From assembly GCA_008632985.1 (NCBI GenBank), contig QPGO01000024.1:62001-126000 (forward strand): a stretch of 64,000 nucleotides of DNA. Direction: 5' to 3'. This DNA is from Psammoneis japonica. Lineage: Eukaryota. The notes below the pieces were generated by a model that worked only from the letters and a program-made list of their open reading frames with translations, made no database searches and was not told the origin of the DNA. Both the position numbers and the translations under genes were made by a program. Shown piece after piece: positions 3,050 through 51,459 of this stretch. Every line of letters begins with the position of its first letter. Positions within the stretch are counted from its first letter, which is position 1.

Positions 3050-6000
3050 CTAATCTCTGCCATTTTTCGCATCCATCTTTTGAGCCTGTTCCAATCTCTC
3101 AATGGCTGACAAGCGGCAAGGTGTTTGGATTCCGTGCACTTGTCAACGCACCCGTCGGGCGTAAAGACACGACCAAAGTAATGCAGAATGAGCTTGTCAT
3201 CGTTGCAAGCCTCGAGGATCTGAGCCCTGTGCTTCTTGCCATCCTCATTGTGGCACACAGTGTCACCCTTTGCAAACGCAACTTCCTCAAAGACAATCTA
3301 GGAACCCCGAGTGGCAACGCCAGCCTTCTCGTTCGGTTCATTTTCCCTCTCGATTGCACCGGCATCGTTGTCATCCACGCGAAACGTGTGGTGGGAAGCA
3401 AGCTTCCTGGGGCATGATTGTCCAAAGTTGATCTTCTCTCAGCAGAATCAAGATTCACATTGAAGTTGGGAGACTCGTTCTGCCTAAATGGAGCTGGACA
3501 ATCTGACTCTTCGGATGATGGATGACTCGACTTGAAACACTTCTTGGGAGTTGGCGCAGTGCTCCTGTTCATCAGGAACTCACGATGCTGTTCCTCTGTG
3601 CATGGTGCTTGCAGCTGTGTTCCTCAAACTCTCAGCAAGCTGAGTGCATCTCTTGCTGATGCTGATCAAAATCTGGGTCGCCCATTGCCCGGTCATCATT
3701 CCGTTTGGAGCTCTGAGGACTCATCAATCTGACTGACAATGGGTGTTGCCATGATGCCCAAAGCTGATGCAGCTTGTGCGGAGGGACAAGCACGGGACCA
3801 GAAGACCACCGATGATGCTGCTTGTCATGTGGGTCAAGAGCTTGCTGAGCTGGAGCATCTTCTTGAGGCTCGAGGAGAAATTTCCAAGGGAGGAAGCAAG
3901 AGCCCACAGTTGGCTGCAGCAAGCTTCTCAGAATCGCATTTTGAGAGGCTTGATGCAACAGTCTCAAGGTGAACATTTCTGTGTGCAATCAAAGACTGCA
4001 GCACAGCTCATTGATGGAACTGATTCAAGTGACAACATCATTGGGAACATTCGCTCACAAATTGCAGGTGGCATGTGCTGGAGGGGGGGGGTGTCAACCC
4101 TCCCAAACTTGCTTCTTTGTGTTGTGCACTGAGTTTGAGCACTGCCAATTTGCCAAAATGTTGTGTTTGGGTGCCAGCTGCATTCTGTCATTCTTTCAGG
4201 AGCTCAGATGAGGAGCCTTGTTGCACATTTTGTCATCCGTTTGTCATCCAAAAAAAGTGCAGAAGGGAAGAAATGAGAGAAAAAAGCAGCCTCCTTGCTC
4301 GCACTTTGGTTTTTCATTTTTCTGACCGCTTCTTGGGATCCAGTCTCACGAGCATTCAATTTCAGTTTTGGTCACATGGCTGCAGTTGATTGTCACTGAC
4401 AAGTTTACATGCAGCACCTTTCAAAAGAATCAGCACTTCAAAAGAAAATGATCACCTTCCAGCACCTTGAAATTCCAAATTCCTGGGCCACCACCTGCAC
4501 TCAGCACCTTTGGTCTCAGCACTTTGAAAGAAGCATCTTCACTGTCTGCATCTGTTGTCCTCTTCAGTGCACCCAGCCTCATTTTTCACTGACACCACCC
4601 TGGTCAAGTGATGCAAAAGTTTTGTGAAGGTTTGAAAACATTGCAGTCTGTGCACATGTTTGCTTGTGAGTGTGTGAGTGGTGGGTGAGTGCACAAGTGT
4701 GTGAGCAGCTTTGAGTTGGTTTGTGGGACACATGTGCTTTTCATGCAACCTCTGGGTTGGGTTTAGTGTTTGCACATGACTGCACATGGCGAATCTGGCA
4801 GCAACTCATTTGTGTGTTCTCAGGGGTTGGGACCTCGTGCAATGACTCTGGAGTTGAAAGGACAAAACTTTGTGCTGGCTGTTCATCTTCATTGCACAAG
4901 GCAAGACACCCACAAGATTGCACCCATTTGTGCACATGATGCGCATGAGCATCAGCTCAGTCTCAACAAGTGCTCACCCCTTTTTTTCACTTGGTTCATT
5001 TTAGTTGCTTTTGAGTCTCTCATGTCCAAGGTGGCATCTTGTTTTTGTCTCTGGCGGCCATTGGATCTACAGAGAAAGGCCGGCAAACAACTTGCACCTT
5101 GTCAATTTGGGGCTGTCATCTTCAGGCCTGTGCCAATTTGTGGTGACAAAGTGTCAACAAGTGCAAACTGAAGAAGATGTGTGCAGTGACATGTGGAGTT
5201 CACCGGCCAACTTGTCACAGCCATGCAAGGCAAGACACCCACAAGGTTGCATCTGTTTTGTGCATCTGATGAACAAGCATTGGCTCCATCTTGATCAGCA
5301 CTCACAGTCCATTGCAATGCCTTTTTTGCTTGACTGGCTGTGATCATTCTGCCAATCTCGAAGAAGTGCTCAGCCATGAAGAAGACATGTGTTGACCACA
5401 ACTGCATCAAAAAGGCCAAAGTCAAATCTGCCACAATTGACTCTGGAACATCAGCACCACAATCAACATCTGCTTCATCTCCAAGCTTGGCCTTGCACCT
5501 GTCGCCAACCTTGGGAATGTCAGTCACAGTGTGAGTTTCCCTGGAGATGGCAATTGCAGATGCCATGCTGTGTGCAAAGGCCCAGAGGATGCTGGCTCAG
5601 CAGCAGAGGAAGGTTCTTTTGATGAAGACATGGGTGGCTTTAGAAAACTTGTGCATGATCATGCTGAGCAGAACTTTGTGGGCATTTGTGCAGTTTGCCC
5701 TTGGACACTGGGACAAGCACAAGGAGAAGGACAACTCTGCAGCAGATGATGATTGCGGAGGTCTTCTTGCCATTCAAGTTGATTGTAAAATTGTCAGTGA
5801 TTTCAAGGTTGACAAGAGCAAGGAGTGCAACAGCGACATTGATCACAAAGGTTGATTTTGAAAATTGCTCACTTGAATTGTGGCTGTGGCCCCGTCATTG
5901 GTGTGATGCAAATCAAAGGCTCCATCCTTGCACTTCAGTGTGAGCAACCAATTGTCTGCATTTGTGAAGGAGCAGGCAGAAACACCATCATTTGCCATTG

Positions 6001-8850
6001 TTCCAATGGAAAAGTGCAGCTGCTTTCAATGGCTGAGAGACACTTGGCTGTCACCTTTGGCCAATTCCATCATGATCATCCATGACAGCACTGGCCATTT
6101 TTCATGCTTGAGTCAGTTGCACAGAAGTGACATGGTCAGTCCTTGCATGCTGAGTCAGAGTTGCTTCTTTTTGATGACAGCAATGTGCAATCTCACATTT
6201 GTGCATCTTGTGCATGTCTGTTGCCACCATTTCTTGCCACTGCAAGATCACCTCTCCACCAATTGAGCTGTTGGCATGGTCACTGGCGACATTGCCAAAT
6301 CATCAATCACTGCTGGTGTGGTTTGTTTTGTTGCTGCCCAACTGGTTGCCACCTGTGGAGCCAAAGGATGGGCTCAACCCTGCCTTTGCAAAGCACCAAG
6401 CAAAAGCCACCTCTGCTCAGAAGCACCTGGTGCTGAAAATCCACACAAATTCAATGAACAAATCATTCATGGTGCATGGAACATTTCACACATGGTGGAC
6501 CAACAGGAGGAAGAGCAAGAGCAGACTGCAAAAAGCCACCACTGCAGTGATGCAGTCTTGTGTGGATTTAGCACAAATGGATTTGGCAGACAAATCAATG
6601 CAGTTGGTGGAGGTTTGATTCCTGCTGTGGTGTGTGAGAGCAACTGCATCAAGTTGAGTCACAAAGTCTGGACAAACGTTGTCATCATCAACACTTGTGC
6701 TGTGTTGAGTTTAGATGCAGTGTGGTGCATCCTCATTGCAACAAGAAATTTGAAATCCTGCTGTTGTGTGGGCCTGCAGTTGGCACCCTGGAATGCAGCA
6801 CTCCAAAAGGCAGGTGCTCAATTGTTAAAAAGGTGCTGAAGATGAAAAAAGGTGCTGACTTTTTGGCCATTTTTTGAAAGGTGCAGGATTTTTAAGGGTG
6901 CTGAGTGCAGCATCATTTGTCTCAGTGCACTCTCGAGGACAAATGCAAGACCAACAAAAAAGTTAGACCACAACTTGTTCTTGTCTCAATCCATGGAATG
7001 GATGCTCATTTCTGCTGTGCAGCATCATCTGTTGCAAGCAACCATTTGAGTGACTTTTTTAGATTTTTTTTGCCGTGGCAACAAGGGTGAATTCTGCCAC
7101 CATGGTGGTGGTCATTTGCCATCTTTTGTCACAATGCAGCCTTCTTTTCCCTCCATCAAAGGCTTTCATCTGTTGTTGCTTTGTGTGAGCGTCAATGTTG
7201 GTGTTGCTTCAAAAATCTCAAATTCATCAGCAAGATGCTTGCATTGTCTGTTGTCTGCACAAAGTGCTTGTTCTTTGTGTTGTTTTGAAGGGGACAATGC
7301 TGTGGCGCCAGCATTTCTTTGCATGTCATCACCACCTTGGGGCTGTCTCACAATGCAAATGATGGTGTGTTGAAATGGTGTTCCCTGCAATTTGCTGAAG
7401 AAAAGACAGAATTAGAGGAGATGTGCAAGGAGCCATGTGACCACAACGAGAGGACGGATTGCTGTCACAGGCAGAGCTTGGACAAGCAGCATGAGTCAGT
7501 GACAAGTGGGCCAAGAAGGTCATTGCAAAGCTTCAGAATGAAGAGGGGCTCATTGATCCTTGCTGTCAAAAGTCTTTGAGACACAGGAGGGCATGAGCAC
7601 TGTGATGCTGGACTCGGACAATGCTGTTTGTGGGAAAATTTTTGAGTGTGCCTTCTGACAGCCCCACCTTGGGCACCTGAGATGAAGCCAATTGAGCCAC
7701 TGTGGAATTGTCTGGTGGAACATCTTTTGTCAGCCCATTTGGATGACCACCTGTTTTTTTTTTGGAGGGCATCAGGTGGCCTGCCATGCAGCTGCTGTTG
7801 TGCAGTCATTCATGCCAGCAGACATGGAGCCAGCCTGCCGCAACTGTCCACTGTGGCTGCCAAATCTGGCCAGAGTTGACTCTGACATTGCAGCATCTCT
7901 GTGATTGTCAACACATTGCAGTCTTTTGCCATTTTAAAAATGAGTGCACTCCAGTGCAGTTGCCAGTGGACATGGGACAGCAGGAAGAAAAGCCTGCTTT
8001 GGCTTCTCCCTGCTTGCTTCTCCCATTGTCAAATTGTGACAAAACACATGTGCCATGTCACTGGTGCCATCACGGCATGTGCTCCAGCCCAGAGGAACTT
8101 CTCTTCCTGCAGCTTTGGCAGAGGTGGGAAGTGGAGTGGAGTTGGAGGTGGCCTGCTGTGGGTTTGTCAACAACATTTCACCCGCAGCACCGTTGCAACA
8201 GCACAGTCTGTTGCTGGCATTGTCATGCACGGCTCTCCAGCCCACTGCAGAGGAAGGGCTGGCTGCACTGGAGGCAGCGGCAGCTGAGACAGCATGGTGT
8301 GAGACCAGCTGCCTCCCACGACAGAACTCAAAAAAATGGGGGTGCCACTGTGGCCACTGGCTGCTGGCAAGAGTTTGCTGTTGCGTGTCATTGCCAAAAA
8401 AGGATTGACAAAATGAGTGTTGAGTGTTTGCAAGACACAGTGCAAGACACACAGCCAATCTCAAATCAACAACTTGCAATGTGGGGCACATCATTTGAGT
8501 TTAAACTGGCAAGTCAAAAAACCATGGGAACTGCTTTGTTTGTGACAAGACAAAACTCTATTCAGTTGCAGCTCAACTTGTCATCGCATTCATCAAGGCA
8601 GCTCAATGACCAATTTACTTGGCGCATGACTTCTTGAAAGGATCCTTCATCACTGCTGACAACAGAGGAGTCTGGAAGGCTTTCAGGCAATCACTGGATG
8701 TTCACAGCAGCTGGGATTGCACCACCACTGTGGCAATCCACGGAATCTTCTCTCAGCCAGATTTTTGACTCAGCTCGTCATCTGGTTCATCCTTTCTTGA
8801 CATCACATCATTGCACTCGTCAAGCAAAACAGGGTTGTGGCCATCAGACC
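3050..8850. other. Old, heavily decayed repeat/TE block depleted of both TpA and CpG
   Basis: Dominated by TG/CA; no assignable protein. Contains a degenerate direct duplication (gcaagacacccacaag...) at ~4893-4978 and ~5222-5306. Confidence 0.6.
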
Positions 8851-9126
8851 TGACAGAAATTGAAGGCAAATGGCAAGAATTCAAACAATGACTCCTTGCT
8901 GCTGTCTAAATGGCAGATGAGTCTCCGCTCAGAGACCGTTGCAGGAGCCGAAAGACGTGCAAGTCGGCACAATCGGGCTGCTGTTGTTGTCCTTGTGAGC
9001 CTTGTGGCTCGAAAGCAAACTGCATCGTGCGTGAACGCGCGGAACTAAAGCACACAAAACTGTGCGCGGTAAACTAAACAGCGCGCGATGCTTCGCGCGC
9101 ACCCAAATCCTGTTCAAATCCTGTCA
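8851..9126 (-). repeat. 3' LTR of the Copia element (276 bp)
   Basis: On the minus strand the purine tract ggggag directly precedes TGACAG at 9126; the LTR ends CTGTCA at 8851, next to the TSD. Confidence 0.85.
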
Positions 9127-9129
9127 CTC

Positions 9130-12100
9130 CCCAGTTTGCTTGAGGAGTCACAGAAACAGATTCGACTTCGGATGGAATGAAGTTCCAGAACATGAGGGGG
9201 CGGAGAAGGTCCCAGATTTGGGAGCAACCCCAATGCTTGCTGAGAATGTCAGCAGGGTTGCGGGAGCCTTCGATGAAGTGGAACTCAAGGCAACCAGAGG
9301 CAATTGCCTCACGCACACGGTGGAACGACAGTGCGGTGTGTCGCTTGTGTAACTTGGAGTGCGGGATGGTGGCACTGTCTACAACCGACTTGTTGTCACC
9401 GAACATGCAACTGACATTACGGATCGGGACGCCAAGGTGGCGCAGGGTGATGCGCAGGTCGACAATCTGCTCAACACAAGTCCTTGCGGCAACAAATTCA
9501 GACCCGCAGGTCGCAGTCTCCACGGTGGCTTGCTTCTTAGAGAACCAATCAGCCGGGAATTTGTTGAGGAAGTGGAGCATTCCCATGACAGAGCGTCCGG
9601 TGAGCATGCAATGGTGCAAGTTTGCATCGACGTAGTGGGTGGCAGTGACGAACTTGCCAAGGGGCGGTGGAGCGTCCTTCGGGATCATCTCTTCTGCTTC
9701 GCCACACACGGAATGCATCCATTCACAGGCCGGAGCAGGGAGATCCGAACAGTCGGGCTCTTCCGTGCGAACGCGGAGAGCACCGTGTCGCATCTTGGAG
9801 AGGTGCCCACAGACGCGTTTGGCACGATCCAAGTGGCCTTGACGGGGCGCAGCTCGGAAGCTGGGGAGTGACATGACGGCCGTGGCAATGTCAATTTGAC
9901 CAAGGGACACTGCCCATTGGAGTGAACCAACAAGAGACTGGAACTTGTGAATGCCATCGGGTCCCAGCAGTTCGGAAGTGTCCAGTTCGGGGTGGTCACC
10001 CTTCTCCAGAGGTGACAGGGCATTGGTGGTGGGTTTCTCCCCAAACAGTCGGGCTCAGCTGTCGACCATGCGCTCGATGTACTTGCGCGGAGACAGGCAC
10101 AAGGTTCCGTCGGGATCCCGGGAAAAAAGTCGCAACCCAGATGGAACTCAATGGGTCCCGCACCCTTGAGCTTGAACTTGTGCTTTTCCGTGAGAGTGTC
10201 GACGAAAGATTGAGGGTCCTTCATGGCAATGGCGAGGTCATCCACATAAACGGCAATGCATTCATGGTGGTCGCCGTTCCTGCGCATCCAAATGTCGGGT
10301 TCGGCGCGGCAGGGGAAGAAGCCTTCAGCTCGCAGGCAGTCGGCGAAGCGCTCGTGCCAGCGGAGACCGGAGCTGCGCAGTCCATACAGTGCCTTGTGGA
10401 TGACAAGGATGTGTCCTTCGAGTTTGCCAAATTCGGGTCCGGCTGCAATGTAAAGCTTCTCCTTGGTGGTGGCTTCAAGGTGGGCATTGCCAATGTCGGT
10501 GGCCCATGTCTCCAACTCGTTGAGTTCGGCCAGGAAAATCATCAGCCGAAGGCCACGGAGGGAGACTGCTCCGGAGTGGACACTGTCGACAGGTACGTCC
10601 GTGAGGTGCCCGTCGGCTACGAGTCGTGCCTTGTGGCGACCGTCGTGTTTCACGTCGTACACTGGGTGCACTCGGATCTTCTTGTGTCCCGCAGGAGGAG
10701 TGGAAGACTTGAAGGGCCCGCAGTCATGGAAGACTTCGCATTCGTCGAGTTGGTCCATCTCGAGATTAGTTGCGTCTTCCCACTTGCGGTTGTCGTTGCG
10801 TTTGTCTAGTGACATGGCGTGTTTGCAGTTCCGGGGAACTTCGTGTCCGTACTTGTAGCGAGGTGCAGTGCGGAAGGAGCAAAGCTTGGCTTGGTTGGCC
10901 ATGCGAAATAGCTTCTTTTGGCGCCTCGCGATGGTGCGGAACCGCTTCCAGCCATCCGTGTCGAGGAGTCCGTTCTCTCGTGCGTAGATGGCACAGGTGA
11001 CGGGGTCGTCCTTGGCGATGATGGCAAGAGGCTCGGACGTGATCTCCCCACTTTCCCATTCAAGCATGATGTTGTAGCTTGAGCCTTTCCAGGTTGGGTC
11101 GTGAGGCTTCAGAGGTCCTTCGTGTGACACGATGCGTCGAAATTTCCAAACAGTGGTGTCTTCGTCTTCTTGCTCAATGTGATTCATGATGTCATTGTAG
11201 GCAAGGACTTCCTCGCATTCGTCATTGTTGACAGAGCAGACGAACTTAGTGAGCTCGGGATTGCCGTTCACTTTCCATTCGTGGTCTTCGACGGCCTTGA
11301 TGATGCGAGCTCTGTGGCGTTGTCCGTCCTCTTGTGGCTGCATGAGGAAGGTACGTCCAATGATGTCTTGCGGATCGAAAACTGGCATCTTGGGTGTCCT
11401 GATCTCCCCATCAGGAGAATCAACGGGGTTGTCGTCATGGCGAGATTTGATGATGGGTTCAGGTGGCTCCCCATCAGGAGGATCAAGACGCAGGTTTCGA
11501 ACGGCAGGATCGGTGGCAGCGGAGCGGACGTTGGACCGGCAGAGGATCTTCTGAGTCTCGTCAGATAGAATCTTGAAGGTCATCTGGTGGCCGACGTGCT
11601 CAGCAATGCCAACGAAGCGTCCGCGCAACTCACGGGATTCGGACAGCCAATCGGAGTCATCGAGGTGGAAGTGCACGGGTTCCCACCAGTGAAAGCGAAG
11701 CAATGGGCTGATGTCCGGGGTGGAGCCAGTGAGAGTCTCGAGGGGCGTGCGCCAGTGGAGACATGGGGACGCTGTGTGGTTGAGTGTGAAGCACACGTGC
11801 ATGAGCGCCAGCAGCCATGTGTGGGCGGGCGAACCAAAACGATCCATGACGGTGTTCGCCATGCGCTTCACGGTCTGGCATCGACGCTCGGCAAAGTTTT
11901 GGTGTTGCTGGTGAGGCTCACTTTGCCAGCTGGAGATGAAGAGGGCGCGTGGGATCCCAAGCACTTTGTTGCTGATCTCAACTTGAGCACGGTCGCTGAT
12001 GAGTTTGGATGGGGCACCACGTTCACGGATCTGATCCTCGAGTGTGTTGACAAACTCTTTGTCCGTCTTAGTGCCGTGGACGTCAGTGACGGTAGACTCG

Positions 12101-14060
12101 GTGCCAACAAACAGTTGGGCGCTGGTGCAACCAGAGTCGACGGCCGGGGTGTCGGCACAAACGGTGTCAGTGGCGACAGGCTCGTTGCGGCGGTGCACAT
12201 TAAGGGCGGGGTTGGGTGATTTGTGGGCCTTCCTAAGGTGTGTACCGGCGGGCATGCGGGCGCACTGCGTGGTGCAGTCAAAAGTGCGACGGACCGCATC
12301 GGCAGGCAGGAAGCCAAAGTGAGGCCGAAGAGACTCGAAGGGGGGGTCCTTGGGCTGTGCAGTGCGCTCCGGAGGCGGAACGTCATCATCCTTGGGGTCA
12401 ATCGCATGCAGATGACACTCGCAGAACACGTCGTCGTTCGGAATGAGGTGATCATCGAGGGCGGACGCGTGATCGGCAGACAAGGAAGCGGACATGATGG
12501 TCTTGTTGACAACGACACGATGGCGGCAGTTGCCGCATTCGTCAAATGGGTTGGCAGTGGGATCGTCCTGCAGGTCAGAGATCGCGTCGTGCCACTGGTC
12601 GTCGTCAGTGACAGAGTGATCGAGGACGGAAGGGTCCCATGTGTCATCACCGGTGAGGATGACATGGGGCAGGGTGTCCCATTCGGCGTCAGTGTAAGGT
12701 CGCATGGCAACATGAGGCAGGCCGGCCTTGATGTCAATGGGGATGACATGGCCATCAGGAGTGGCGGTGCGTTGCAAGCCGTTGGGCACCTTGACAGAGC
12801 GATCATTGACATCCTGTTTGCACCATTCGAGCTGGCCGCAGGAATGGATGGTCTTGCCCTTGCCCGTGCATGCGCACTGATGGAGGATGGCGATGACGGG
12901 ACCACGCTGGGTCTCAATGACGGCACCAGCGGTGACAACAGGGATGTCCACCAATTGATGATCGTCAATGCCCTGAACGTCGACTTGGCGAGAGGTGCGT
13001 GCAATGACGCGAACGTCGTCGCCAGCAATGCCGCCGTTGGCCCCATGATCGACTAGAGCGCCAGTGCGTGTGGAGCGATGAGCAGAGGCAGAGCAAATGA
13101 CATTGTGGTTGTTGACGCGGCGGCAAGTGCAGCCGTTGAGTTCCATGTCATCTGCAGAAGCTGGCGGGGTAGAGGAAGCGGCGGATGGCCCCGGTCGACT
13201 GGCATTGGGGGCTTGGTTAGGAGACAACAGACGTTGCAGATCACCGGGTGGCAGTGGCTTGCGCTTGGTGAGGTGCGCCAGGATGGGATCATCCGAAGTG
13301 GCACCCACATTTGGAGCGGAGTCACCAGAGTCAGCAGGAGTCGTGTTGGACAAGTTGACATCACCGTCACTCCCAAGGTGTTGGTTGTGAAGGTTGGCCG
13401 TAACAGACTCATGGCAGTTGCTGGCTCACGGGTTGCGGGGAGGCGGACGAGAATGCTCAAGGATGATCGCCTTGGAGGAATCGGGCAACGAATCCCAGAT
13501 CCGTTGGTGGTCGGGAGGGAGACGTCTCCATTGGTCACCGGCGAGGCTGGGACCGCGGGTGCAGGCAGCATTGGCCTGAAGGACGTCAATGTCGCTGTCA
13601 ATGTCGCAGAACACATCGTCGGACGGTTCCTCGGAGCAGACGTCGTGTGCACATGTGGCACGTCGGGGAGCTCGAGGTGTCGTCTTGGGTTGAAACGCAC
13701 TGTCGCACTGAGCTGCCGCGGAGAGGAGCAAGCCACAGCATTGATCGCATGTGAGGCTCTTGCCACTCTGCGTACGATGCTGATCAGCTTGGTTCTTGAC
13801 AGCACAGAGTTCCTCGACAGGGTGCACGGCATTCTCGAGCATGACGCGCTTCTGTCCTTCAGAGAAGTGGTCACTGGCCGGGATGAGTGCCTCGCACTTG
13901 CGCAACTGATCTTGCCAATGAAGGATGAACCCGTGGGTCGGACCTTTCCAAGTGCCATCACCAAGGCGTGCGGTGGCAAGGCACGTGAGCAGGGTGGAGG
14001 ACTCGATGGATGCGCGGGTGGAGGCAAGCGCACACTCAGACAAGGCGTGGCAGATGGTCT
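9130..14060 (-). pseudogene. Copia gag-pol pseudogene
   Basis: ORFs 13426-14202 and 9685-13353 are in one frame, split by a TGA. There is a frameshift at the A-run near 10125 and the RNase H part is in ORF 9074-9910. Many conserved Tyr appear as Cys/His. Confidence 0.9.
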
Positions 14061-14211
14061 GGCTCACAAGGATGACAACAGTGGCCCAATCATGCCGACT
14101 TGCACGTCTTTCGGCTCCTGCAACGGTCTCTGAGCGGAGACTCATCTGCTGTTTAGACAGCAGCAAGGAGTTGTTGTTTGAATTCTTGCCATTTGCCTTC
14201 AATTTCTGTCA
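14061..14211 (+). repeat. Inverted copy of the terminal 151 bp of the Copia LTR
   Basis: Reverse complement of 8851-9001; it differs at five CA/TG dinucleotide swaps and one C/T. Confidence 0.95.
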
Positions 14212-14347
14212 AGACCCAGTGGAGTGAGACATGTCATGATGAAAGATGTGGCAACTGACTGTCATGGAGACAGATGGAAAATTTCAAGTCAGAAGTGTAA
14301 AAAAAACATGCCAGACCCTGTGCCACTGGTGGCGTAGAATGGCTCAG

Positions 14348-14772
14348 TGCAACACACAGCTGCCAACAAGAGTCAATGTATCACGGCGACGTGTTGCAGC
14401 CTTTAAATGTCACAAAGGGCGTGACAAAAATGACCTTTTGTCTTCATGCATGCTGCATTGTGAATTCACAATGGAGTGGTTCATCGCAACCATTGGGCAG
14501 GAGGCCAGGGGTTCGAAACCCTGAGTGGGAGTTGTCTGCAGCAACGTTGATCACTGTCGAACGCGCAAAACTCTGTGCAGTTCTGTGTGTTCCTTCGTGC
14601 GCACCCACACTGTTCCGCCAAAACCGTGCAGTGTCAGCACACGTTAGTGAAGAGCCGCATGGACGCGTGATGCATGGGGAGGAGTGCAACACACAGCTGC
14701 TGACAAGAGCCAATGCATCACATGTCACAAAGGGCGTGACAAAAACAACCTTTTGTCTGCATGCATGCTGCA
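14348..14772 (+). mobile_element. TRIM-like miniature LTR element
   Basis: Direct repeats 14348-14457 and 14685-14772 (TGCA...TGCA); purine tract ggggaggag (14676-14684) directly before the second repeat; no coding capacity; no TSD found. Confidence 0.6.
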
Positions 14773-15872
14773 CTGGTTCAGGGTGTGCACAAATTTTGCA
14801 CCACATTGGCGCACGTGATTTTCACATGAGACTCCACATGCGCCAAGCGGCGCAGACCCAGCACAAAATCAATGAATTTTTGAAGTTTTGTGGCGTGCAC
14901 TCTCAGCATGTTGTGGCATGGATTTGACATCAGCAACAAGGCTTCACACAATGCTGTGTTGGTCTGACTGTGAGCCAAGAAACACAGATGGTCAGGTCTT
15001 GTTCTTGCTCAGCTGGCTGCCCAAAATTTAAGGTGGAGTGCAGCCGGAATGAAGAAGGCTGCAGGTCAATTTGAGGTCCCAGTGAGAACTGGCAAGAGCG
15101 GAGCATCAAAAACCCCTGTCCTTGGCAACGCAGCAACAAGCATGTGAAACTTCACAATGAGACAGGTTGCAAGAAGGAGCTGCCCAAACCACAGGTGGGC
15201 ACAAGCACAGAGCTCTCCCATCTTGTCTGCTGTTGGATGAGCCTCCTGCAGCAGCCATGGCTGCACTTGAAAACCAAAGGTGTGGTGGGTGATGGGATGG
15301 ATTTTGCAAGTTCTCTCAAGACTTTGTGACAGACAAGGCTGAAATTTGGGCACAGCATCCACAGATGCTTTGGGAGAGATGCTGTCAATTTGTTGAGGCA
15401 GGCACTGGTTTGCTGATGGCGCAGGGGTGGGGAAGGCCACAGCGCTTGCTGACGGAGATTTTTTCAAGAGCTTTTGAAGAGGATGACACCATGTTTTCTC
15501 ACTTGGAGGCTTCAGAGAATTGTTTGAACACAATGGAGCCAAACCGCCAAAGTGCGCACTGAATTTTGGAGAATGAAGAAGGCGCGGATCCATGTGGCAG
15601 TGGCCGAGCTGGTGGGACAAGGGGGCTTTTGGACAAAACAAGCTGCCCAAGAAGCCATGATGGACTGGCAGCACAACACTCACAAAGACATCATTGTCAA
15701 GCTGTCATGGACTGACACAACTCCATGGTTGCGTGTTGTGGGAGCTTTGCTGTCAAGCACAAAACCACAGCACCTCAAGTCACAGACAAGCTGCTTTGCA
15801 GGCACAAGCCCAGCCAAGGGCCGCAAGTTGACAGCCCAGCAACATCTTCTCCTTTTCTCCTCTTTTCTTTTT

Positions 15873-15895
15873 CCTCTCTCTCTCTCTCTCTCTCT
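15873..15895 (+). repeat. (TC)n microsatellite in a pyrimidine tract
   Basis: ctctctctctctctctctctc. Confidence 0.85.
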
Positions 15896-16181
15896 TTTCC
15901 TTTTCTCCTTTTCAGTTTGTTCTTCTGGGCCACCTCTTTTGTTCTTCCCACATGCCAAAATCCCAGGCAGACATTGATTGCCCTCAAATGCCAACTTGAA
16001 AAAAAAAAATTCTGTGCCCACGACGAACGAGGAAGAGCAACATGCACCCAGCCACAGGCGGCCCAGCCACCGAACAAAGAACAACGGCGGTATGCTACGC
16101 GCGCGGGAGCCGTGAGCCGTGAAGCAACATGGTGACAAGGCGAAAGACGTGAGCGACCTCCAGCTATAAGGAAAGGGAAAA

Positions 16182-20325: not shown

Positions 20326-20725
20326 TTTCGAATTTTGATAGCGATGTCGTCAATCAAGAGAATCTGTAAATAAAAGTTGGTTTAGGTTCGACTGGGAATG
20401 CTATTAATAGCTAAGACAGGCAGAGTCGTCACACAAGACACAAGGTAACCTTTCCGCAGTTTCAACTTTGGACTTTGCATGTTGCATGTTGCATGGCTGC
20501 ATGCTGCATGGTATGTGCGGATGACGGAAAGACTAAACAAGACTTATACGCGATCTCGAGCTCCAGAGCTCGTAAGGATTGAATTGTTAGCCTTTCACAC
20601 GATTTTTACGATTTTTCCAAAATTTTCAGGTTTTTATTTTTTTGTGGAAGCCAGATTTGCAACTTGCAACACAACACTCTTCTGTACTGCACGCAACATG
20701 CAACACGGTGAGGAGCGAACTGACC

Positions 20726-23248
20726 ATGACGACAACAGCGGTTATAGACATGTCAACCAAGATCGGGGGTCGGGTTGTAACTCCTGCGTTTCCGGTTGTG
20801 GACGGGTCCGAACCCACGGCCATCGAGCTCACGTTTCAGAAGACGCTGGACGCTTTTGTTCGGGACAACATCCCTCTCGAATCGACCGAAGGCATCCAGA
20901 CGCGTGAACGAGTGCTGAATCGCATGGGCGTCTTGTGTCGAGAATGGATTCGATCCGTCTGCTCCAAACGCGGCCTTCCTCCTGATGTTGTTGATAGTGC
21001 TGGTGGACAGCTCTTCACCAGTGGTAGTTATCGCCTAGGCGTGCACGAACCCGGAGCTGACATCGACACTATTCTAGTGGCTCCAAACATGTGCACTCGG
21101 CATGATTTCTTTGGGGCTGTGTTGGAAGAGCTCGAAGACGGGACTATTGTGAGAGATCCAGACTCGTTAGCGGAACGAATTAGAACCAACCCGGACGTAA
21201 CAAACTTTGTGCCGGTGGAGGGCGCTGCGGTCCCGATCCTCACATTTGATTGGGAGGGAATCAACATTGACTTGCTCTTTGCCAGACTCAACTCAGCCTC
21301 TGTTCCCGCCACTCTCGATATTGATGTGGACGCCGTCCTGGATGGTGTTGACAGTGCCACAGAAAAATCGCTGAACGGTCCTAGAGTAACAAATTTGATA
21401 GCGGCGCTTGCGTCCGGGACCGCCAAACGCTACGAAGCGTTTCTGACGGTTGTCCGATGCGTGCGTAAATGGGCAAAAGCGAGGGGGCTGTATTCCAACA
21501 AATTGGGATACTGGGGCGGAGTCAATATCAACATTGCCGTCGCTCTTGTCGTCCAACTTTATCCTGAAGCGTGTCCCGCGAGTCTGTTACGAAAGTTCTT
21601 TCTTGTCTTTAAGAGTTGGCGGTGGCCAAACCCTGTCATGCTCACCAAGCCGCATGACGCTGGGTACGGATTACCCGTCTGGAATGCTCAACACGTTCAC
21701 AACGCACGGCAGGTTGCACCCATTATTACACCTGCCTATCCTTCGATGAACGCGTCTCTCTCAATATCACGTCAGACGCTTCAAATCATGCATGAAGAGT
21801 TTTGTCGCGGACACGATATCATTGACAAAATATGGAAAAAACACCAAGCCAATCCTGAAGCCATTGACGAGGTTGTGTGGGATGAACTCTTTGAGCCGTC
21901 GGACTTTTTTATTTCATATCCGTATTATCTCAGCTTGTGCATCGTTGGGCCGACGCAAAAAGACACTCAAGCATGGTGCGGTTTTGTGGAGTCGCGTCTG
22001 CGAAAACTTGTCTCTGATATGCTTGCTCGATCTCTACCCATCAGCAAGATCCAGCTATGGCCGAAAAAGTTTGAAATATGCGTCGCCGACCGGTCCGCGC
22101 TCTTGACGGCTGCTCAGCGAGGAAACAGTGTCACGTACTTTGTGGGTTTCAAGGTTGACACCCTTCGCATGCGTGGAAACCAACTTAACATTGAGCTGCA
22201 GCTGCACAACTTTCGAGAGTGGGAGCTATCGAGATTTCAACCTTTAATTGCTGGGATGGATGTACTGTCGAAATGTTTCAAGGTGAAGGAGCTGCCTGGA
22301 GTTGTGTTTCAAGACATGTATGAAGGGGGCAAAGTTGCTGCGATGAAACGACGCCGGACTATTCGTGACGCAGATCCTAAGCGACAGGAGAAGAAGCGAC
22401 TGGCTCACTTGAAGGCTTTGAAAGAAAAGATGGACGCAATTAAAAGGAAAAAAGAAGAACAGGGTGGGGCTAAAGGCGATGATGAGACTGCACCAGAGGA
22501 AGGCAACGAACGAAAGAGAAAGAGAGGGGAGGGAACCCCTGACGAAGAGAAGGATTCAAAAATCATCAAGATTGAAAAACCAGATGTCAGCAACGTTGAC
22601 GAAAGCGAAGAAGCGGATCTTCTCGAGTGTGCTCTTGACACTATACAGCAAGATGACGATGCGGCCGGGGAAAAGAAAACACGAGAAGAAGCTGAAGCAG
22701 ATCGGAGAAAGCTACTTGCAGGAGAGTTACTTGAAGGGGAGGATCTGGTAGGTGGCAATATGGACGAAGATGATGCCGACTACATTGGACGTGATGGCGC
22801 TCGCCTCAGCTTCGTGGGAAATGTCGAACCGCAAGTACAGGAGGAAGCGAAACCTCACAAGAACATCCGTAGCCTTCCGGTGGGAGAAGCCGAAGCAGAA
22901 ATACTTCGAAAGATTGGTTGCGCAGTTGTGAGCGACGACGAAGTTACAACAATCGGAGGAAACATGGTCCTGCCCTGGCGGCGACCGGAAGTAACTGGTG
23001 TGGTGCAACAGGAAGGCAATGAGGGAAACGCTGCTCTTCCATCCATGCGAATCACATTCAAAACAAAGTTTGATATTGTTGAATTGGACGCCGCTGGACA
23101 CGTCATCGACAAAGGCGACGATGACTTCACTCCGGCTTTAAAATGGACTGGGCGCAAAGCAGGCTTCGAGTTTAAAAGAGGGGAGCGAGGACTTGGGTAC
23201 TATCGCACCGGGAAGAAAGTTGTGGTGCCTTCGAATACTGCGTACTAG
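20726..23248 (+). CDS. PAP: Canonical nuclear poly(A) polymerase
   Basis: FTSGSYRLGVHEPGADIDT, SLNGPRVT, KWAKARGLYSNKLGYWGG, PIITPAYPSMN, GFVESRLRKL. First in-frame ATG at 20726. Confidence 0.95.
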   Translation: MTTTAVIDMSTKIGGRVVTPAFPVVDGSEPTAIELTFQKTLDAFVRDNIPLESTEGIQTRERVLNRMGVLCREWIRSVCSKRGLPPDVVDSAGGQLFTSGSYRLGVHEPGADIDTILVAPNMCTRHDFFGAVLEELEDGTIVRDPDSLAERIRTNPDVTNFVPVEGAAVPILTFDWEGINIDLLFARLNSASVPATLDIDVDAVLDGVDSATEKSLNGPRVTNLIAALASGTAKRYEAFLTVVRCVRKWAKARGLYSNKLGYWGGVNINIAVALVVQLYPEACPASLLRKFFLVFKSWRWPNPVMLTKPHDAGYGLPVWNAQHVHNARQVAPIITPAYPSMNASLSISRQTLQIMHEEFCRGHDIIDKIWKKHQANPEAIDEVVWDELFEPSDFFISYPYYLSLCIVGPTQKDTQAWCGFVESRLRKLVSDMLARSLPISKIQLWPKKFEICVADRSALLTAAQRGNSVTYFVGFKVDTLRMRGNQLNIELQLHNFREWELSRFQPLIAGMDVLSKCFKVKELPGVVFQDMYEGGKVAAMKRRRTIRDADPKRQEKKRLAHLKALKEKMDAIKRKKEEQGGAKGDDETAPEEGNERKRKRGEGTPDEEKDSKIIKIEKPDVSNVDESEEADLLECALDTIQQDDDAAGEKKTREEAEADRRKLLAGELLEGEDLVGGNMDEDDADYIGRDGARLSFVGNVEPQVQEEAKPHKNIRSLPVGEAEAEILRKIGCAVVSDDEVTTIGGNMVLPWRRPEVTGVVQQEGNEGNAALPSMRITFKTKFDIVELDAAGHVIDKGDDDFTPALKWTGRKAGFEFKRGERGLGYYRTGKKVVVPSNTAY

Positions 23249-24936: not shown

Positions 24937-25293
24937 ATAATGTAGAATCAGCGTACCAGGTACGAGAAAGCTAGCTAATTTCTTAGAGATTACCATCGAC
25001 TATGCTACACTGACGACTCGCAACAATGATGATAGCAATGTCATTCAGCAAATGGCTACCCAACTATCTCCAACATATTGTACGCTACTCGTCGGTGAGC
25101 ACTTCTCCAGTTCATAGGCCTCCTACTCGTAGGCACCGCCGGAGCTGATCCAAAAGTGAATGAATGAAACTTCCCGTTCGTTTTGGATTCTGCCCTGTGT
25201 CAGCTATCTGTGTTCAGCATTCAGCATGTACGGTATGTGCTTTATTCGCTGTCAGTCTGTCCGACCCTGATCAAAAGTGAGGAAGGATGAGCG

Positions 25294-26706
25294 ATGATGG
25301 ATGATGAGCCGAAGCAAGTTGGAGCGGCGATGAGAGACGGCATGCAGAAGTTGTTTGGGCTCGACTGCTGCACCCTTCTAATTCTCTTGGAAATAACCTG
25401 GTGCATTACGCATTTCGCAGGAGCTTTTTCCATGTGTGCGAGTGACGTCCATGGATTTCGCATCCGCACCGTGACTGCTTTCGTTTTTTTGGAGGGGACT
25501 GACTTCTCTCCTTGCAATTCAGCTAGTGGATTTTCCTCCTTGATACAAGAAAAGGTCGATAAGTGCGCCAAGATATTGCGAGGAGTGGAAAATGAGCTTT
25601 CTACCTGTGGATATGAAGTACAGACGGTTCGAGTTGTTACAAATCCGTTCGGTGAATGGTTGTCGCGTGACGTTGGGTCAAGTTCCGACTCTCCTTTAGA
25701 GACGGCAAGAACGCGCCTTGGAATTCTCGACTCCGAATTGGCGAGCCATGACATCAGCTTCTGCGCACTGGGGCCTGCCATGAATGCGGAGGAAACAAAC
25801 TTGCTTTGTGCGGAAATTGTGCGTTCGTCACCGCGGTTCTCGTGTTCGGCGAGTGTTGCTCCAGCTGACGTACATGCTGCAACCGCCGCAGCCGAATGCA
25901 TTCTTCGCATTTCACGTTTAGGTGATCCCGAGCATGTTGCAATGGGACTGGGGAATTTCCGATTTTGTGCTGCTGCCTCTTGCAAGCCCTTTATACCGTT
26001 CTTTCCGGGAGCAAAGTCGGCTTCTATTGTCGATGCTTCACATGATGCGATTGGTATTGCCTTGGGTCTCGAGAACGGCGGACTAGCCAAGAATCTTATG
26101 AAGAAAACCCAGTCAGTGAAAAACATTGGAACCACCTTTAAGCGTGGTATAGAGGAGGCGCTTCTTCCGCTTCAGAAGATTTGCCGAAGCTTGTCAAAGG
26201 AACTTGACTTCCACTACATCGGGATCGACTCAAGTCTTAACCCATCTCTTGATGAGGGCGGCTCCGTTGCCGAAGCAATAGAGGAGCTTGTTGAGGTATC
26301 AGGTGGCTTTGGGGGACCAGGAACGATTGCAGCCGCTTCTGCGATTACCATGGCGCTTCAGTCATTAGCGATTGATCCCCTCACCGGCTACTGTGGATTG
26401 ATGCTTCCACTATGCGAGGACCGGAGACTAGCGCAACTGGCAAGCTGCGACAATTCTATTTTGAAGATATCCAATCTCTTGAGCATTAGCAGCGTCTGTG
26501 GCGTAGGAGTGGATACTGTTCCTGTCCCTGGTGACAGCACAGTGGAGGAGTTGACATCGTTGATTCTTGATGTTGCAGGTATTGCTGGTCGCTGGGACAA
26601 GAGTCTAAGCGTTCGTGTCTTTCCAGTTGTCGGCAGGACTGCTGGGGATTTCACCACCTTTGACTCGCCCTACATGTGCAACAGTCGAATACTACCAATT
26701 GACTAA
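25294..26706 (+). CDS. DUF711/UPF0210-family protein (start may be the Met of MCAS)
   Basis: RIRTVTAF, YEVQTVRVVTNPF, GIDSSLNP, GYCGLMLPLCED, SSVCGVGVDTVPVPGD. Confidence 0.8.
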   Translation: MMDDEPKQVGAAMRDGMQKLFGLDCCTLLILLEITWCITHFAGAFSMCASDVHGFRIRTVTAFVFLEGTDFSPCNSASGFSSLIQEKVDKCAKILRGVENELSTCGYEVQTVRVVTNPFGEWLSRDVGSSSDSPLETARTRLGILDSELASHDISFCALGPAMNAEETNLLCAEIVRSSPRFSCSASVAPADVHAATAAAECILRISRLGDPEHVAMGLGNFRFCAAASCKPFIPFFPGAKSASIVDASHDAIGIALGLENGGLAKNLMKKTQSVKNIGTTFKRGIEEALLPLQKICRSLSKELDFHYIGIDSSLNPSLDEGGSVAEAIEELVEVSGGFGGPGTIAAASAITMALQSLAIDPLTGYCGLMLPLCEDRRLAQLASCDNSILKISNLLSISSVCGVGVDTVPVPGDSTVEELTSLILDVAGIAGRWDKSLSVRVFPVVGRTAGDFTTFDSPYMCNSRILPID

Positions 26707-29019: not shown

Positions 29020-29386
29020 TGCACTATGCTCGAAGAACGAGTGTAAACGAAAGTAGAATAGTGTACGAAAAGTGGAAATTATAAGATTGAATTTTGCTCT
29101 GTGATTTTTGGTTTCTCCGAACGAGTTCTCAATGGCCTAAAGCTTCTGTACTGCTTCTACAGACAAAAGGCCTTTCGGAGAATATATTCGTGACAACAGA
29201 TTGTCCGGATACGATTGCTATTGACACGTAAGATGTCAACATCGTCAATCGATCGTATTTGCAATTCTCGACATCCGATCAACTCTGTGTGATCGTTCTG
29301 TCCTTTGTACGCATCCACGACTGTGGTACGATTGACATATAAATAATATATAATCATAAATATGTATATAACAGTCGCATACTGCA
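29020..29386 (-). repeat. 3' LTR of the Gypsy element (TpA-retaining copy)
   Basis: Ungapped match to 33341-33707; terminal IR tgcactatgc...gcatactgca. Confidence 0.95.
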
Positions 29387-32300
29387 TTCGCCTCCCTAAT
29401 TGCACATTAGAGTCATTTGTAAGTGGATTATTCGACGGACATCGACAGTGTCAATAATGTCTCCACTTTCACTGTATTGTGCCATTAGCAATGACTGTTG
29501 TTGTTTTGTATAGGCAATATAGAGCCGTTCCAATTTCCGAATGTCTTTTGAGAGTGACATTGTTTGTTTCTCACTTAACATGTATATATATAGTATTACG
29601 TCGAGTATTCTCATTGACGTTCTTGTTGATATGAACACAAGGACTAATTGTCCTGGAGTAAGTGTTTTTCCTGATATCGATTGTACATGGCATCGTGCCC
29701 AGTACTTAATGTACGCTCTTAATTATGGCGTTCACTTACTTACTTGTGGATTTCATGTAGTTTGGCGGGCTTACTTTATATGCCATATTGCTCTGCTGCA
29801 CTACCACGTTTCATAAGTAATAATAAACGATGGTCAAAGATATTATGACCATTTCGTCTTGATAATCAATCCTGTGATGGTTATGAATTCCATTATGGAT
29901 TTTTTTTTTTGTACTTCAACCATCTATCAGTTGGATTTTAATCGTTATTTGGACGTTTCTTTCTGACATACCGGTGTTATTTTGTCATTCCGAAGGCACT
30001 GGTTTCGTGCACTAAGTGGATAAATGTCCATTTTTCTTTTCTTTTTCTAGATCTTTGGCACATCTCGTGTGTCGACATGATGTATATTTTAATGTCTTGC
30101 CTCGTACATTGTACAATACAACCGTACGGGTGTTGTGAGATTGTCTTTTGCCAGTGTGAAGTGGATACGTATAATGTATACCAATCTGTCACTGTTTTTT
30201 CCTAAATCGTCCTTTAAAAAGGCGATTTTATCCTTGTGACATGAGCATTTTTCGATCTCGCTCGCCTCCACGAAAAGTAAGTGTTCGTATGATATGTCGC
30301 GTCCGACAATTTGGAGGGAATGTCTTTATCCCGTTTTAACGGTAGGACATTGTCGTAGGATTCAATTTTCTATAGTAAGTCGGCTGATCGCGTCTATCGC
30401 GACGATGTTCGCCTTGCCCTCGTTGTATTCTAATTCGGGACTGAAGTTGTCAACGTATGACTTTGTCCGTTGTGTCTTATGATCCGTATATGTATAAATC
30501 TGTTGGCCAAACAGTATATTTCGGAATTTTATAAGTGTTTTCACTGTGGACAGAAGTTCTTTTTTCCGTTGTAACGTATAATATTGAAATCCGTGTATGA
30601 TAACAATATAGTTTTTGATTTGATACGCTCCATATTTTCGGAGACTTTTCGTTCCGTACTTGTACTTTTGCCGTTTGACCTTTATTGAGGTGAATTTGGC
30701 TAGTATTGTACAGGAGATCGTTGAGACTACGTGTCTCGATAATAGTAACGTATGACAACGAGATGTCGTAGTGTTCTTTACGTTTTTCTCGTGTTGCGAT
30801 TGCTTGAATCGCCTCCATTTTCTTTGCAATCGATTGCATGTCGTTACGTATGGAAGTCTTGATAGTTTATTTCAAGTTAAATAGTGAAGGACTTTTGTTG
30901 TTAACCTTCTAAGCGACTGTTCTAGTCGTTTGAATGCCGCATTAAGCTGTTGCTTGCACAGGTGATATTTTGAAGTTACTTTTGTCAGGCACAAACGATC
31001 ACACACAGTCGTTCTGACAACTTCAAACCTGTTATGAGTTCACTCAAGTGTTGCACAAAAATATCTGGGGCTCTATAGATTCTCATTGGAAGTCCACAGC
31101 ACTCATTTTCTCCCCACGGCATGATTTTCGTGTGAGCACGACGTGTGCTTTTTTTTGTTTGACATGGTGGCATTCCATGTTTGAATCAAATAGATCACAC
31201 ACATGAAACGTTCTTGCTTCAACAGCATTTCCTGAATATTGGGCAAAGGATACACCACCTGTATGAACCTCACACTAAGCTTCTGAGTGTCGGATGCGGT
31301 CGAACTCGACCTGTTTTCTTTGGACAATGAGTCTCAGAGCGACTTGTTCAGAGCAATTTCATTCTCAAGACTTCAATCTTTCATAACAGGTCAAACTCCT
31401 TTTGATTGGACGCCTCCAAAGACTGTGATGGGAGAAGGTTCTCACGCGTCGTGGAATCGCGTCAGATTTTCCACGATGAGATCCACTGATGCTTCCCACA
31501 CATTCGTCTGAGGAACTTTTCAAAACGATTTCAACCTCTTGAGAAGAAGATTGAGTTGGTTGTGTTCATTTGGGTTAGATGCATCGCCGTAGTTGTCACT
31601 TGATTAAGATCGATGGCGTGACAATGTGAGTCGAGGACCATTGGTTCCGTTGTCAACTCTGTTCACGGCGTCACATTTTTCAATGTGATCGGTTTTCAGC
31701 TTGAAAACATCGGCATCGAAGAGTGCACGAACATTCTTCATAAGGCAATTGCTTCTTCCCATTAGATTTCTGCATTTGCGTAGTCCAATGTGACTTGCAG
31801 GACTGGACATTAAGTCGCGTCCCATGATCATGTCATTTGAATGTCAGTGTGCCTTAAATTTCGCACAGTGAGAACTGAATTCGGTGTTTGCTGTCAGTCG
31901 TAAAGAGCTCACCCTTGGTTTTCCAAGTTTTTGGTGGCGGATTCTTGTGTTCTCAACTTTCGCACGAATTTGCGCAAAATTGTGGTTGACGATGTTCCGT
32001 TGTCGACAGGAACACGTGGGTGCTTTTTTCTCTCCTTTCCCAAGGAAGTGTTCATGTGAATGATGACTCCTGGACTGGTGTGAATTATTTCTGCCTTTTT
32101 TCTAGGCTTCCCAATGTCCAGCAAAGCACATGATTCGTGAACAGACCAAAATTGTTCTTCGGATTCAGTCTGGATCATCCGATCAAATTGGCACTTTTCT
32201 TCACTGAGGGTGTCAGAATCTGATTCTTTGCCCTTGTGCTCTTTTTCTTTGTTCAAGGAACTCGCTTTGAGCATTTTTTGAACCGCCTGATCAATCATGA

Positions 32301-33340: not shown

Positions 33341-33707
33341 TGCACTGTGCTCGAAGAACGAGTGCAAACGAAAGTAGAATGGTGCACGAAAAGTGGAAAT
33401 TATAAGATTGAATTTTGCTCTGTGATTTTTGGTTTCTCCGAACGAGTTCTCAATGGCCTAAAGCTTCTGCACTGCTTCTACAGACAAAAGGCCTTTCGGA
33501 GAATGTGTTCGTGACAACAGATTGTCCGGGTACGATTGCTGTTGACACGCAAGATGTCAACATCATCAATCGATCGTATTTGCAATTCTCGACATCCGAT
33601 CAACTCTGTGTGATCGTTCTGTCCTTTGTACGCATCCACGACTGTGGTGCGATTGACACACAAATGACGTGCAATCATAAATGTGCACACAACAGTCGCA
33701 TGCTGCA
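33341..33707 (-). repeat. 5' LTR of the Gypsy element (TpA-mutated copy)
   Basis: Ungapped match to 29020-29386 with about 24 transitions. Confidence 0.95.
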
Positions 33708-33711
33708 GCGC

Positions 33712-51450: not shown

Positions 51451-51459
51451 GCACACACT

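Follow-up and report, generated by a model that had tools for sequence, protein, structure and literature searches.

In repeat-induced point mutation (RIP) of ascomycete fungi, C:G pairs are changed to T:A, mostly at CpA, which becomes TpA. This makes TpA and stop codons and lowers the GC content. RIP is guided by duplication, and both copies are hit. ADAR (A to I in double-stranded RNA) and APOBEC (C to U in complementary DNA, cDNA) do their work before integration, on RNA or on the first cDNA strand, and leave changes of one strand. A system working at TpA has been described in Bigelowiella natans. According to the preprint sections cited here, 230 of 231 new mutations in two integrated viral regions of mutation-accumulation lines were A to G or T to C, all of these at TpA and at about 1000 times the normal rate (Mettrop et al., 2026, bioRxiv 10.64898/2026.01.13.699255). 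The same sections report that TpA-poor coding sequences are enriched in reverse-transcriptase and DDE domains, and they propose an ADAT2-like deaminase. Here, a stretch of 64,000 nucleotides of contig QPGO01000024.1 from Psammoneis japonica (positions 62,001 to 126,000; assembly GCA_008632985.1) was analyzed, and this whole stretch is called the window. The window is nuclear DNA of a pennate-type diatom, and its positions 8851-14211 are a rearranged, dead member of a high-copy family of Ty1/Copia-type retrotransposons. This element is called the Copia copy below. A preliminary description had claimed that conserved tyrosines of its polyprotein were converted to cysteine and histidine, and that this fixes the direction of mutation.

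The state of the Copia copy can be explained, with a probability of roughly 60%, by a regional hypermutation directed at TpA that changed A:T to G:C after integration. The polyprotein has lost most of its tyrosine (Tyr). A protein search found 1780 relatives, the best with 71% identity across the local match, and most of these are intact metagenomic polyproteins of about 1850-1900 amino acids. Composition was compared with the 82 relatives of at least 1700 amino acids among the 120 listed. Tyr makes up 0.70% of the window polyprotein, compared with 3.82±0.31% in these relatives (range 3.03-4.47, z -10). Cysteine (Cys) stands at 3.22% compared with 0.92±0.17% (z +13.5), and histidine (His) at 5.04% compared with 3.46±0.37% (z +4.2). 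There are 496 columns conserved in at least 90% of the relatives, and 44 of them are changed in the window. These include 10 changes of Tyr to Cys, 8 of Tyr to His, one of Tyr to stop, and one of Tyr to phenylalanine. Tyr was retained at 5 of 25 such columns, and each other residue was retained at no less than 79%.

At 35 conserved Tyr positions, the window has Tyr 9 times, Cys 15 times, His 8 times, and another residue 3 times. The same positions were read in the DNA of 79 metagenomic relatives. The conserved Tyr are kept in 78 of them, with at most one Cys and two His each. The sole relative with a pattern like that of the window is a contig, L039, which has 10 Tyr, 7 Cys, and 6 His at 23 conserved Tyr positions. 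The preliminary description had quoted nine motifs with Cys or His at places where Tyr was said to be normal. All nine were found in the minus-strand translation of 9074-14208, and Tyr stands at every one of these places in an alignment of 25 intact relatives. The relatives' versions are ETATYGSEF, LRYLGVPI, KSYMFGDN, HWGY, DVYEYIAVYVDD, ESVYSGVV, IGNAYLE, GYKKIRVH, and AERRYQT.

The changes are specific for one dinucleotide. A substitution table was made from 79 differences at columns conserved in at least 80% of the relatives:

TA to TG, single step: 18 of 79 differences
TA to CA, single step: 11 of 79
TA to TG or a transversion, ambiguous: 1 of 79
CpG transitions: 8 of 79
Other A:T to G:C: 6 of 79
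Non-CpG G:C to A:T: 0 of 79
Transversions: 15 of 79
More than one step: 20 of 79

Single-step TA to TG or TA to CA accounts for 29-30 of the 79 differences, and the enrichment in TA-containing codons that had been predicted was thereby recovered. The direction that had been proposed, with TAY changing to TGY or CAY, GTA to GCA, and CTA to CCA, also agrees with the differences at conserved columns. The change of valine to alanine (GTA to GCA) and that of leucine to proline (CTA to CCA, twice) are both present there. The TA class takes in threonine to alanine and isoleucine to valine as well. These are first-position changes, with the T supplied by the third base of the codon before. Since the TA changes span codon junctions, this is a dinucleotide process and not a Tyr effect. 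TpA was turned into TpG or CpA in all codon phases of the Copia copy.

The composition of the whole copy points the same way. It holds 39 TA, or 7.3 per kb, with an observed/expected ratio (o/e) of 0.16. In the metagenomic relatives, TA is found at 49.5±11.0 per kb (78 relatives) with an o/e of 0.72±0.14 (all 79), and the closest of them, L001, has 45.6 per kb. From 7.3 per kb compared with 49.5 per kb, about 200 conversions are therefore estimated for the Copia copy. About five in six of its TA dinucleotides were converted to TG or CA, and TG and CA rise in step with the loss of TA. The GC content of the copy is 0.56-0.60, compared with 0.48±0.03 in the relatives, and CpG is undepleted (o/e 0.91).

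Both strands were changed. On the coding strand of the Copia copy, 42 events could be polarised, of which 27 are TA to TG and 15 are TA to CA. In the long terminal repeat (LTR) pair described next, there are 10 TG to 10 CA. Because the changes are on both strands, editing of sense RNA is ruled out as their source.

A neighbouring element serves as an internal control for place and rate, its LTRs having been identical when made:

29020-33707, minus strand: Gypsy-like LTR element with TG...CA ends, 367-nt LTRs, and a 4-bp duplication, GCGC

A domain boundary near 31000-31400 runs through this element. The half at 31000-33707 has a TA o/e of 0.08-0.28 and a GC content of 0.44-0.48. The half at 29020-31000 is TA-normal, with an o/e of 0.81-0.95 and a GC content of 0.36-0.41. 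One LTR (29020-29386) thus lies in TA-normal sequence and the other (33341-33707) in TA-poor sequence. The two LTRs differ at 24 positions, and 22 of these are within the 30 TA sites of the TA-normal LTR. In the other LTR, these 30 sites read TG (10), CA (10), CG (1), and TA (9). This amounts to 21 of 30 TA sites changed, compared with 2 of 307 other positions, with 0 sites in the reverse direction. One CpG change was found, compared with 21 TA changes. Since one LTR of the pair was converted and the other was untouched, the process acts after insertion and is governed by position, not by homology. Measured indirectly from this pair, its rate appears to be roughly two orders of magnitude above background. 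The terminal arms of the Copia copy differ solely by five CA/TG doublets and one T/C.

The process is confined to domains. There are 157 TA in 31.4 kb of TA-poor domains and 1328 TA in 31.6 kb of normal, gene-bearing sequence. The TA-poor domains are as follows, with no strand assigned:

1-1500: TA-poor domain
About 3300-16050: TA-poor domain containing the Copia copy, in which the older flanks are also CpG-poor (CG o/e 0.04-0.6)
About 31400-40000: TA-poor domain
About 49950-58500: TA-poor domain

The edges of the domains are about 100-300 nt wide, and TA-free runs reach 1402 nt (35261-36663). The right edge of the 3300-16050 domain is sharp. TA is absent from 15029-16091 and is at normal density where a hydrolase gene starts. 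The retrotransposon-rich blocks are 1.5-13 kb long with a TA o/e of 0.00-0.16. Ordinary host genes, encoding a hydrolase, a transporter, a poly(A) polymerase, a DUF711 protein, and an amine oxidase, occupy the normal parts and have a TA o/e of 0.4-0.9. The preliminary description had taken the transposon to be the unit of attack. This part did not hold. The unit is the chromosomal domain, the boundary of which cuts the neighbouring LTR element and leaves one LTR untouched.

Other copies of the family were examined in four runs (X1 to X4) of one sample, probably the source of the assembly, as contigs and not as reads. The family is very high in copy number, with 10227 contig pieces on 8800-14300 in run X1. 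The arms and flanks of the Copia copy have 2-4 times the summed contig depth of its interior. Over 8800-14300, transitions make up 193 of 209 variable places among the contigs. Of 213 places listed, 40 were inspected individually. In 32 of these 40, the place lies in a TG, CA, or TA of the window and carries the letter expected if TA, TG, and CA alternate, and there are nine TG/CA doublets. For example, the window has TG at 12077/12078, where 61% of contig depth has CA and 39% has TA. Copies of the family were hit independently. Contig L039 (2759 nt) belongs to the same superfamily and to another family, with 66-67% nucleotide identity to the Copia copy. Its TA o/e is 0.31. Since it has the same signature, the process is not limited to this genome or family.

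The effect on reading frames is a consequence of the dinucleotide. A change of TA to TG or CA is unable to make a new stop codon, and it destroys TAA and TAG. TAA and TAG together are found at 3.4 per kb in the TA-poor domains and at 18.5 per kb elsewhere, and TGA is found at 24.8 and 18.5 per kb, respectively. The loss of TAA and TAG therefore gives many long open reading frames (ORFs) in all six frames of the Copia copy. It had been proposed that the process erodes the element by missense changes while keeping its frames open. The removal of TAA and TAG stands, as a by-product. The frames of the window copy itself are not intact, since it is broken by a TGA at an arginine site, a TGA at a Tyr site, and a 2-nt insertion. 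The contrast with RIP that had been drawn is sound, as the direction at Tyr codons is opposite and stop codons are lost.

The structure of the Copia copy (5361 bp) can be read from its ends inward:

8851-14211, minus strand: whole Copia copy, Ty1/Copia type, with TG...CA termini
14212-14216, minus strand: target-site duplication GGTCT, 5' side, read directly in the sequence
8846-8850, minus strand: target-site duplication GGTCT, 3' side, read directly in the sequence
14061-14211, minus strand: 5' terminal arm, begins TGACAG; inverted-repeat partner of 8851-9001, joined straight to the truncated gag
8851-9001, plus strand: 3' terminal arm; inverted copy of the 5' arm, 93% complementary
13429-14060, minus strand: gag-like part of the polyprotein, N-terminally truncated, without about 229 N-terminal residues
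13426-13428, minus strand: in-frame TGA; arginine in 60 of 82 relatives; fits CGA to TGA, a CpG transition
10123-13425, minus strand: first frame of pol (protease/integrase-like region and reverse transcriptase), with many changes of Tyr to Cys or His
10126-10695, minus strand: reverse transcriptase domain, Pfam RVT_2, E 4.3e-25
10121-10123, minus strand: frame-shifting insertion of 2 nt within a T6C3 run; private to the window copy
10055-10057, minus strand: in-frame TGA at a conserved Tyr; Tyr in 77 of 82 relatives
9077-10120, minus strand: second frame of pol (RNase H-like C-terminal part), with its natural terminator TAG at 9074-9076

The ends read TGACAG...CTGTCA with GGTCT on either side, and both TG...CA termini and a 5-bp target-site duplication are therefore present. 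The ORFs at 13426-14208 and 9685-13425 are contiguous, so that a single frame runs across the gag-like part and pol. The frame moves at the T6C3 run near 10121-10123 into 9074-10054/10120. In run X1, 18986 of 20155 units of contig depth lack the two inserted letters. In the TGA at 10055, 72% of contig depth has C instead of A (minus strand), and this stop therefore needs a transversion in addition to TA to TG. The Copia-type reverse transcriptase (RVT_2, PF07727) was identified in the window ORF with the E value given above and in the closest relative, P0001, with E 1.2e-29. No integrase domain was found as a Pfam rve match at E up to 1, and the family profile had no PDB sequence match. A D..D..E-like pattern before the reverse transcriptase is visible by eye in the relatives' consensus only. 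A tblastn search with residues 230-1848 of P0001 gave 14064-9170 as its sole match in the window, and no further copies of the family were found there.

Direct LTRs are not present in the window copy, which has the 151-nt inverted arms instead. Of 12 relatives examined among the 79, 10 carry direct terminal repeats at their ends and 0 carry inverted ones. Contigs of other copies continue with different sequence past 14061. The window copy is thus read as probably rearranged and not as another kind of element. Its inverted 151-nt ends and truncated gag suggest a cDNA that had been rearranged and was nevertheless integrated through its two TG...CA ends.

The older repeat blocks of the window (3300-8850, 14212-16050, 34000-40000, and 49950-58500) have a TA o/e of 0.00-0.13, a CpG o/e of 0.04-0.6, and TG and CA ratios of 1.5-2.3. 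No Pfam families were found in four long ORFs of these blocks. A direct repeat pair, 51592-51706 and 56748-56862 (83% identical, 5156 nt apart), lies in a block poor in both TA and CpG, and it is possibly the LTRs of an old element. At 52000-56000, there is a strong skew of A over T (0.24-0.37), and TG exceeds CA on the plus strand. Low complexity was considered as the cause of the TA-free blocks and was discarded. One short tandem array is present in the window, and 54000-54480 is complex sequence.

The host genes were compared with named homologues. There are 11 DUF711 homologues with an organism name, all of them diatom proteins with 47-59% identity. For the poly(A) polymerase, all 13 homologues with an organism name are also from diatoms. 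The best are Cylindrotheca (78%), Nitzschia and Bacillariaceae (77%), and Seminavis (76%), and centric diatom proteins have 69-72% identity to the window protein. Cylindrotheca, Nitzschia, and Seminavis are diatom genera. These homologues place the window in a pennate-type diatom and not in Bigelowiella. The poly(A) polymerase (20591-23248) and DUF711 (25291-26706) genes adjoin in the window. In Nitzschia sp. Nitz4, to go by the record names, the best-named homologues of the two share a scaffold, at a distance of about 2.6 kb. This suggests that the order of these two genes is conserved among pennate diatoms.

There are indications that the bases next to TA matter. Among the TA sites that survive in the TA-poor domains, TTAA and TTAG/CTAA are enriched 2.9-fold. 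ATAT is found 0 times in the TA-poor domains, compared with 206 times in the normal domains, and ATAC/GTAT stands at 0.13. The half-sites of the polarised events read as follows:

T[A]x, x = A: mutated 2 of 18
T[A]x, x = C: mutated 28 of 64
T[A]x, x = G: mutated 7 of 23
T[A]x, x = T: mutated 19 of 45

In these events, conversion tends to be favoured by a pyrimidine following the A and disfavoured by another A.

A probable course of events can be outlined. After integration, the DNA of the element underwent fast change of 5'-TA-3' to TG or CA, and rarely to CG, by A:T to G:C transitions on either strand. The process works within contiguous, repeat-rich domains with edges of a few hundred bases, and adjoining genes are spared. 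The change of Tyr (TAY) to Cys or His is a side effect. TAA and TAG also vanish, and spurious open frames lengthen. The data above show the specificity for TpA, the direction, the involvement of both strands, the timing after insertion, the confinement to domains, and the high rate. The agent may be an enzyme recruited to silenced chromatin, and the effect would amount to genome defence. That the process serves to inactivate transposons is an inference. The likeliest enzyme would be a deaminase of adenine that acts after a T (5'-T-A) and yields hypoxanthine, in line with the proposal made for B. natans. By this analogy, adenine deamination is our tentative choice for the chemistry, at just under an even chance.

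The same regional process at TpA could instead attack thymine. TET/JBP-type oxidation to 5-hydroxymethyluracil or 5-formyluracil would lead to mispairing with G and to T to C changes. TA is palindromic, and the footprint would equal that of adenine deamination. Dinoflagellates carry 5-hydroxymethyluracil in place of T, with a preference for TpA and TpC, and 5-formyluracil causes T to C mutations. To our knowledge, such modification of thymine is not known in diatoms. The preprint sections cited here propose an ADAT2-like deaminase for B. natans and contain no discussion of thymine modification (bioRxiv 10.64898/2026.01.13.699255). Attack on thymine is considered unlikely, though it is the alternative to be taken most seriously.

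An artefact is far less probable. Heavy modification of TpA in silent chromatin could make a long-read base-caller write G or C. The sequencing platform of the runs is unrecorded, the best run contains 62% of the sampled 31-mers of the stretch, and at 7 of the 40 inspected places the letter of the window has no or almost no contig support. However, 1 of these 7 unsupported letters is of the TG-for-TA kind, and contigs of the same sample back TG or CA at most sites. No more than 90 variable places (42 C to T and 48 G to A) could mean TA elsewhere, compared with the roughly 200 inferred conversions. The Tyr to Cys or His pattern is also shared by the unrelated metagenomic contig L039, at 66-67% nucleotide identity. 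In B. natans, Illumina mutation-accumulation data show the process to be real, according to the preprint sections cited (bioRxiv 10.64898/2026.01.13.699255).

Slightly less probable again, and in our view very improbable, is ADAR-like A-to-I hyperediting of the element's RNA, which would be fixed by reverse transcription so that the mutations were imported with the copy. The element is a retrotransposon of a high-copy family, and according to the preprint's Discussion, RNA-editing deaminases favour an A preceded by U (bioRxiv 10.64898/2026.01.13.699255). Editing of sense RNA, however, predicts A to G on one strand, and the element has 27 TG and 15 CA, with 10 of each in the LTR. The arms and the LTRs, which were identical when made, differ at TA sites. 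The depletion also extends to non-Copia flanks and to blocks of 8-13 kb, with a boundary inside another element.

Finally, two further readings can be dismissed as next to impossible. In one, an active sub-family simply has a composition or codon preference peculiar to its lineage; in the other, a reverse, RIP-like change turned CA or TG into TA in the TA-rich sequences. Two-sequence comparisons (arms, LTRs) give no direction by themselves. However, all 82 intact relatives have 3.0-4.5% Tyr, the conserved Tyr persist in 78 of the 79 relatives read as DNA, and both readings are contradicted by the outgroup polarity at Tyr codons. TA is still present in other copies from this sample where the window is converted. 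CA and TG are not lost in the TA-rich half of the LTR element (TA o/e 0.8-0.95), and the ordinary TA o/e of that half and of the host genes (0.4-0.9) makes the TA-poor state the odd one.

Several points weigh against regional hypermutation at TpA as set out above, or against parts of it. No enzyme, base modification, or chromatin mark is visible in the DNA itself, and attack on A and attack on T leave the same footprint because TA is self-complementary. The doublets that separate the arms of the Copia copy could, by themselves, equally derive from an ancestral CG. The four runs come from one sample and bring in no independent strain. Strand clustering of the events is not significant (15 runs compared with 20.3 expected, runs test P 0.053), and none is present in the LTR. 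The contexts of surviving sites could be coloured by TA sites created later, and the context preference in the polarised events is a trend (chi-square p 0.06).

It is possible, although somewhat doubtful, that diatoms carry a DNA base-editing defence that works on chromatin domains. It would act at 5'-TA-3' by adenine deamination or thymine oxidation, without guidance by homology, at a rate of at least about 100 times background and faster than methylated-CpG decay, and it would be shared with chlorarachniophytes. It would be an old, A:T-directed counterpart of fungal RIP across the stramenopiles, alveolates, and rhizarians (SAR), and the composition of diatom heterochromatin would be shaped towards TG and CA. 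If the reading of the window as regional hypermutation holds, the TpA-directed process is not a quirk of one chlorarachniophyte and is also found in diatoms, which are major and genetically tractable algae, with retrotransposon-rich domains as its targets and TA almost eliminated from them. The enzyme could then also be sought in transformable organisms. A natural A:T to G:C editor of double-stranded chromatin would interest the base-editing field.

There are practical consequences as well. The TA o/e together with Tyr to Cys or His in transposon proteins makes a simple test for the process in any genome or metagenome, and L039 passes it. For annotation, long false ORFs abound in all six frames of the TA-poor domains, and transposon proteins drift beyond profile searches. 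For dating, TA and CG sites need to be masked, since age is otherwise under- or overestimated from LTR identity.

The window can be compared with the known systems. As in RIP, dinucleotide-specific transitions ruin repeated, transposon-rich DNA and leave a strong dinucleotide skew. RIP is opposite in direction, however, since the process in the window raises GC and removes stops. RIP hits both copies, whereas one LTR of the pair in the window is untouched, with 0 of 30 sites converted. RIP was therefore rejected as a label, on the opposite direction at Tyr codons, the loss of stops, and the spared LTR. The window also resembles the products of ADAR and APOBEC in its clustered transitions in retroelement copies, and ADAR prefers U or T before the edited A, as far as the cited preprint sections go. 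Unlike these, the changes in the window are on both strands, were made after integration, and include neighbouring DNA that is not part of an element. A fossil of ADAR-like editing was also rejected as a label, given the strand splits already cited and the divergence of arms and LTRs after their formation.

Decay of methylated CpG gives the same two products, TpG and CpA, and it is seen in the same domains, where the old flanks have a CG o/e of 0.04-0.3. In the Copia copy, it accounts for 8 of the 79 changes and one stop codon. It starts from another dinucleotide and is much slower. The Copia copy and the young LTR lost most TA and kept CpG.

In the full-text literature, with subscription journals and preprint supplements outside the search, TpA-specific hypermutation was found in the B. 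natans preprint only, and none was found for diatoms. It goes unmentioned in the consulted parts of two diatom papers (Maumus et al., 2009, PMC2806351; Hoguin et al., 2023, PMC9998398). The comparison with B. natans is made with the preprint sections cited. Three features of the B. natans type are found in the window, namely A to G or T to C changes on TpA, confinement to repeat DNA, and a high rate, the last indirectly. In both, TpA is the only target, the products are TpG and CpA, and the bias is towards G:C. Both are confined to particular foreign or repeat regions at a rate orders of magnitude above the rest. The hosts differ, as the window is from a diatom (a stramenopile) and B. natans is a chlorarachniophyte (a rhizarian); the word diatom is absent from the preprint. 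The evidence for B. natans is direct, from mutation-accumulation lines, whereas the window is a fossil record. The targets in the window are LTR-retrotransposon-rich blocks near saturation (TA o/e 0.00-0.16), compared with 0.45 in the nucleocytoplasmic large DNA virus (NCLDV) insert of B. natans. The older blocks of the window are also CpG-depleted, unlike the B. natans case. Thus, relative to what those sections describe, the window adds a diatom lineage, near-saturated retrotransposon-rich targets, a boundary inside one element, a slower CpG decay that coexists with the TpA process, a trend in sequence context, and a footprint that can be read at the level of the protein.

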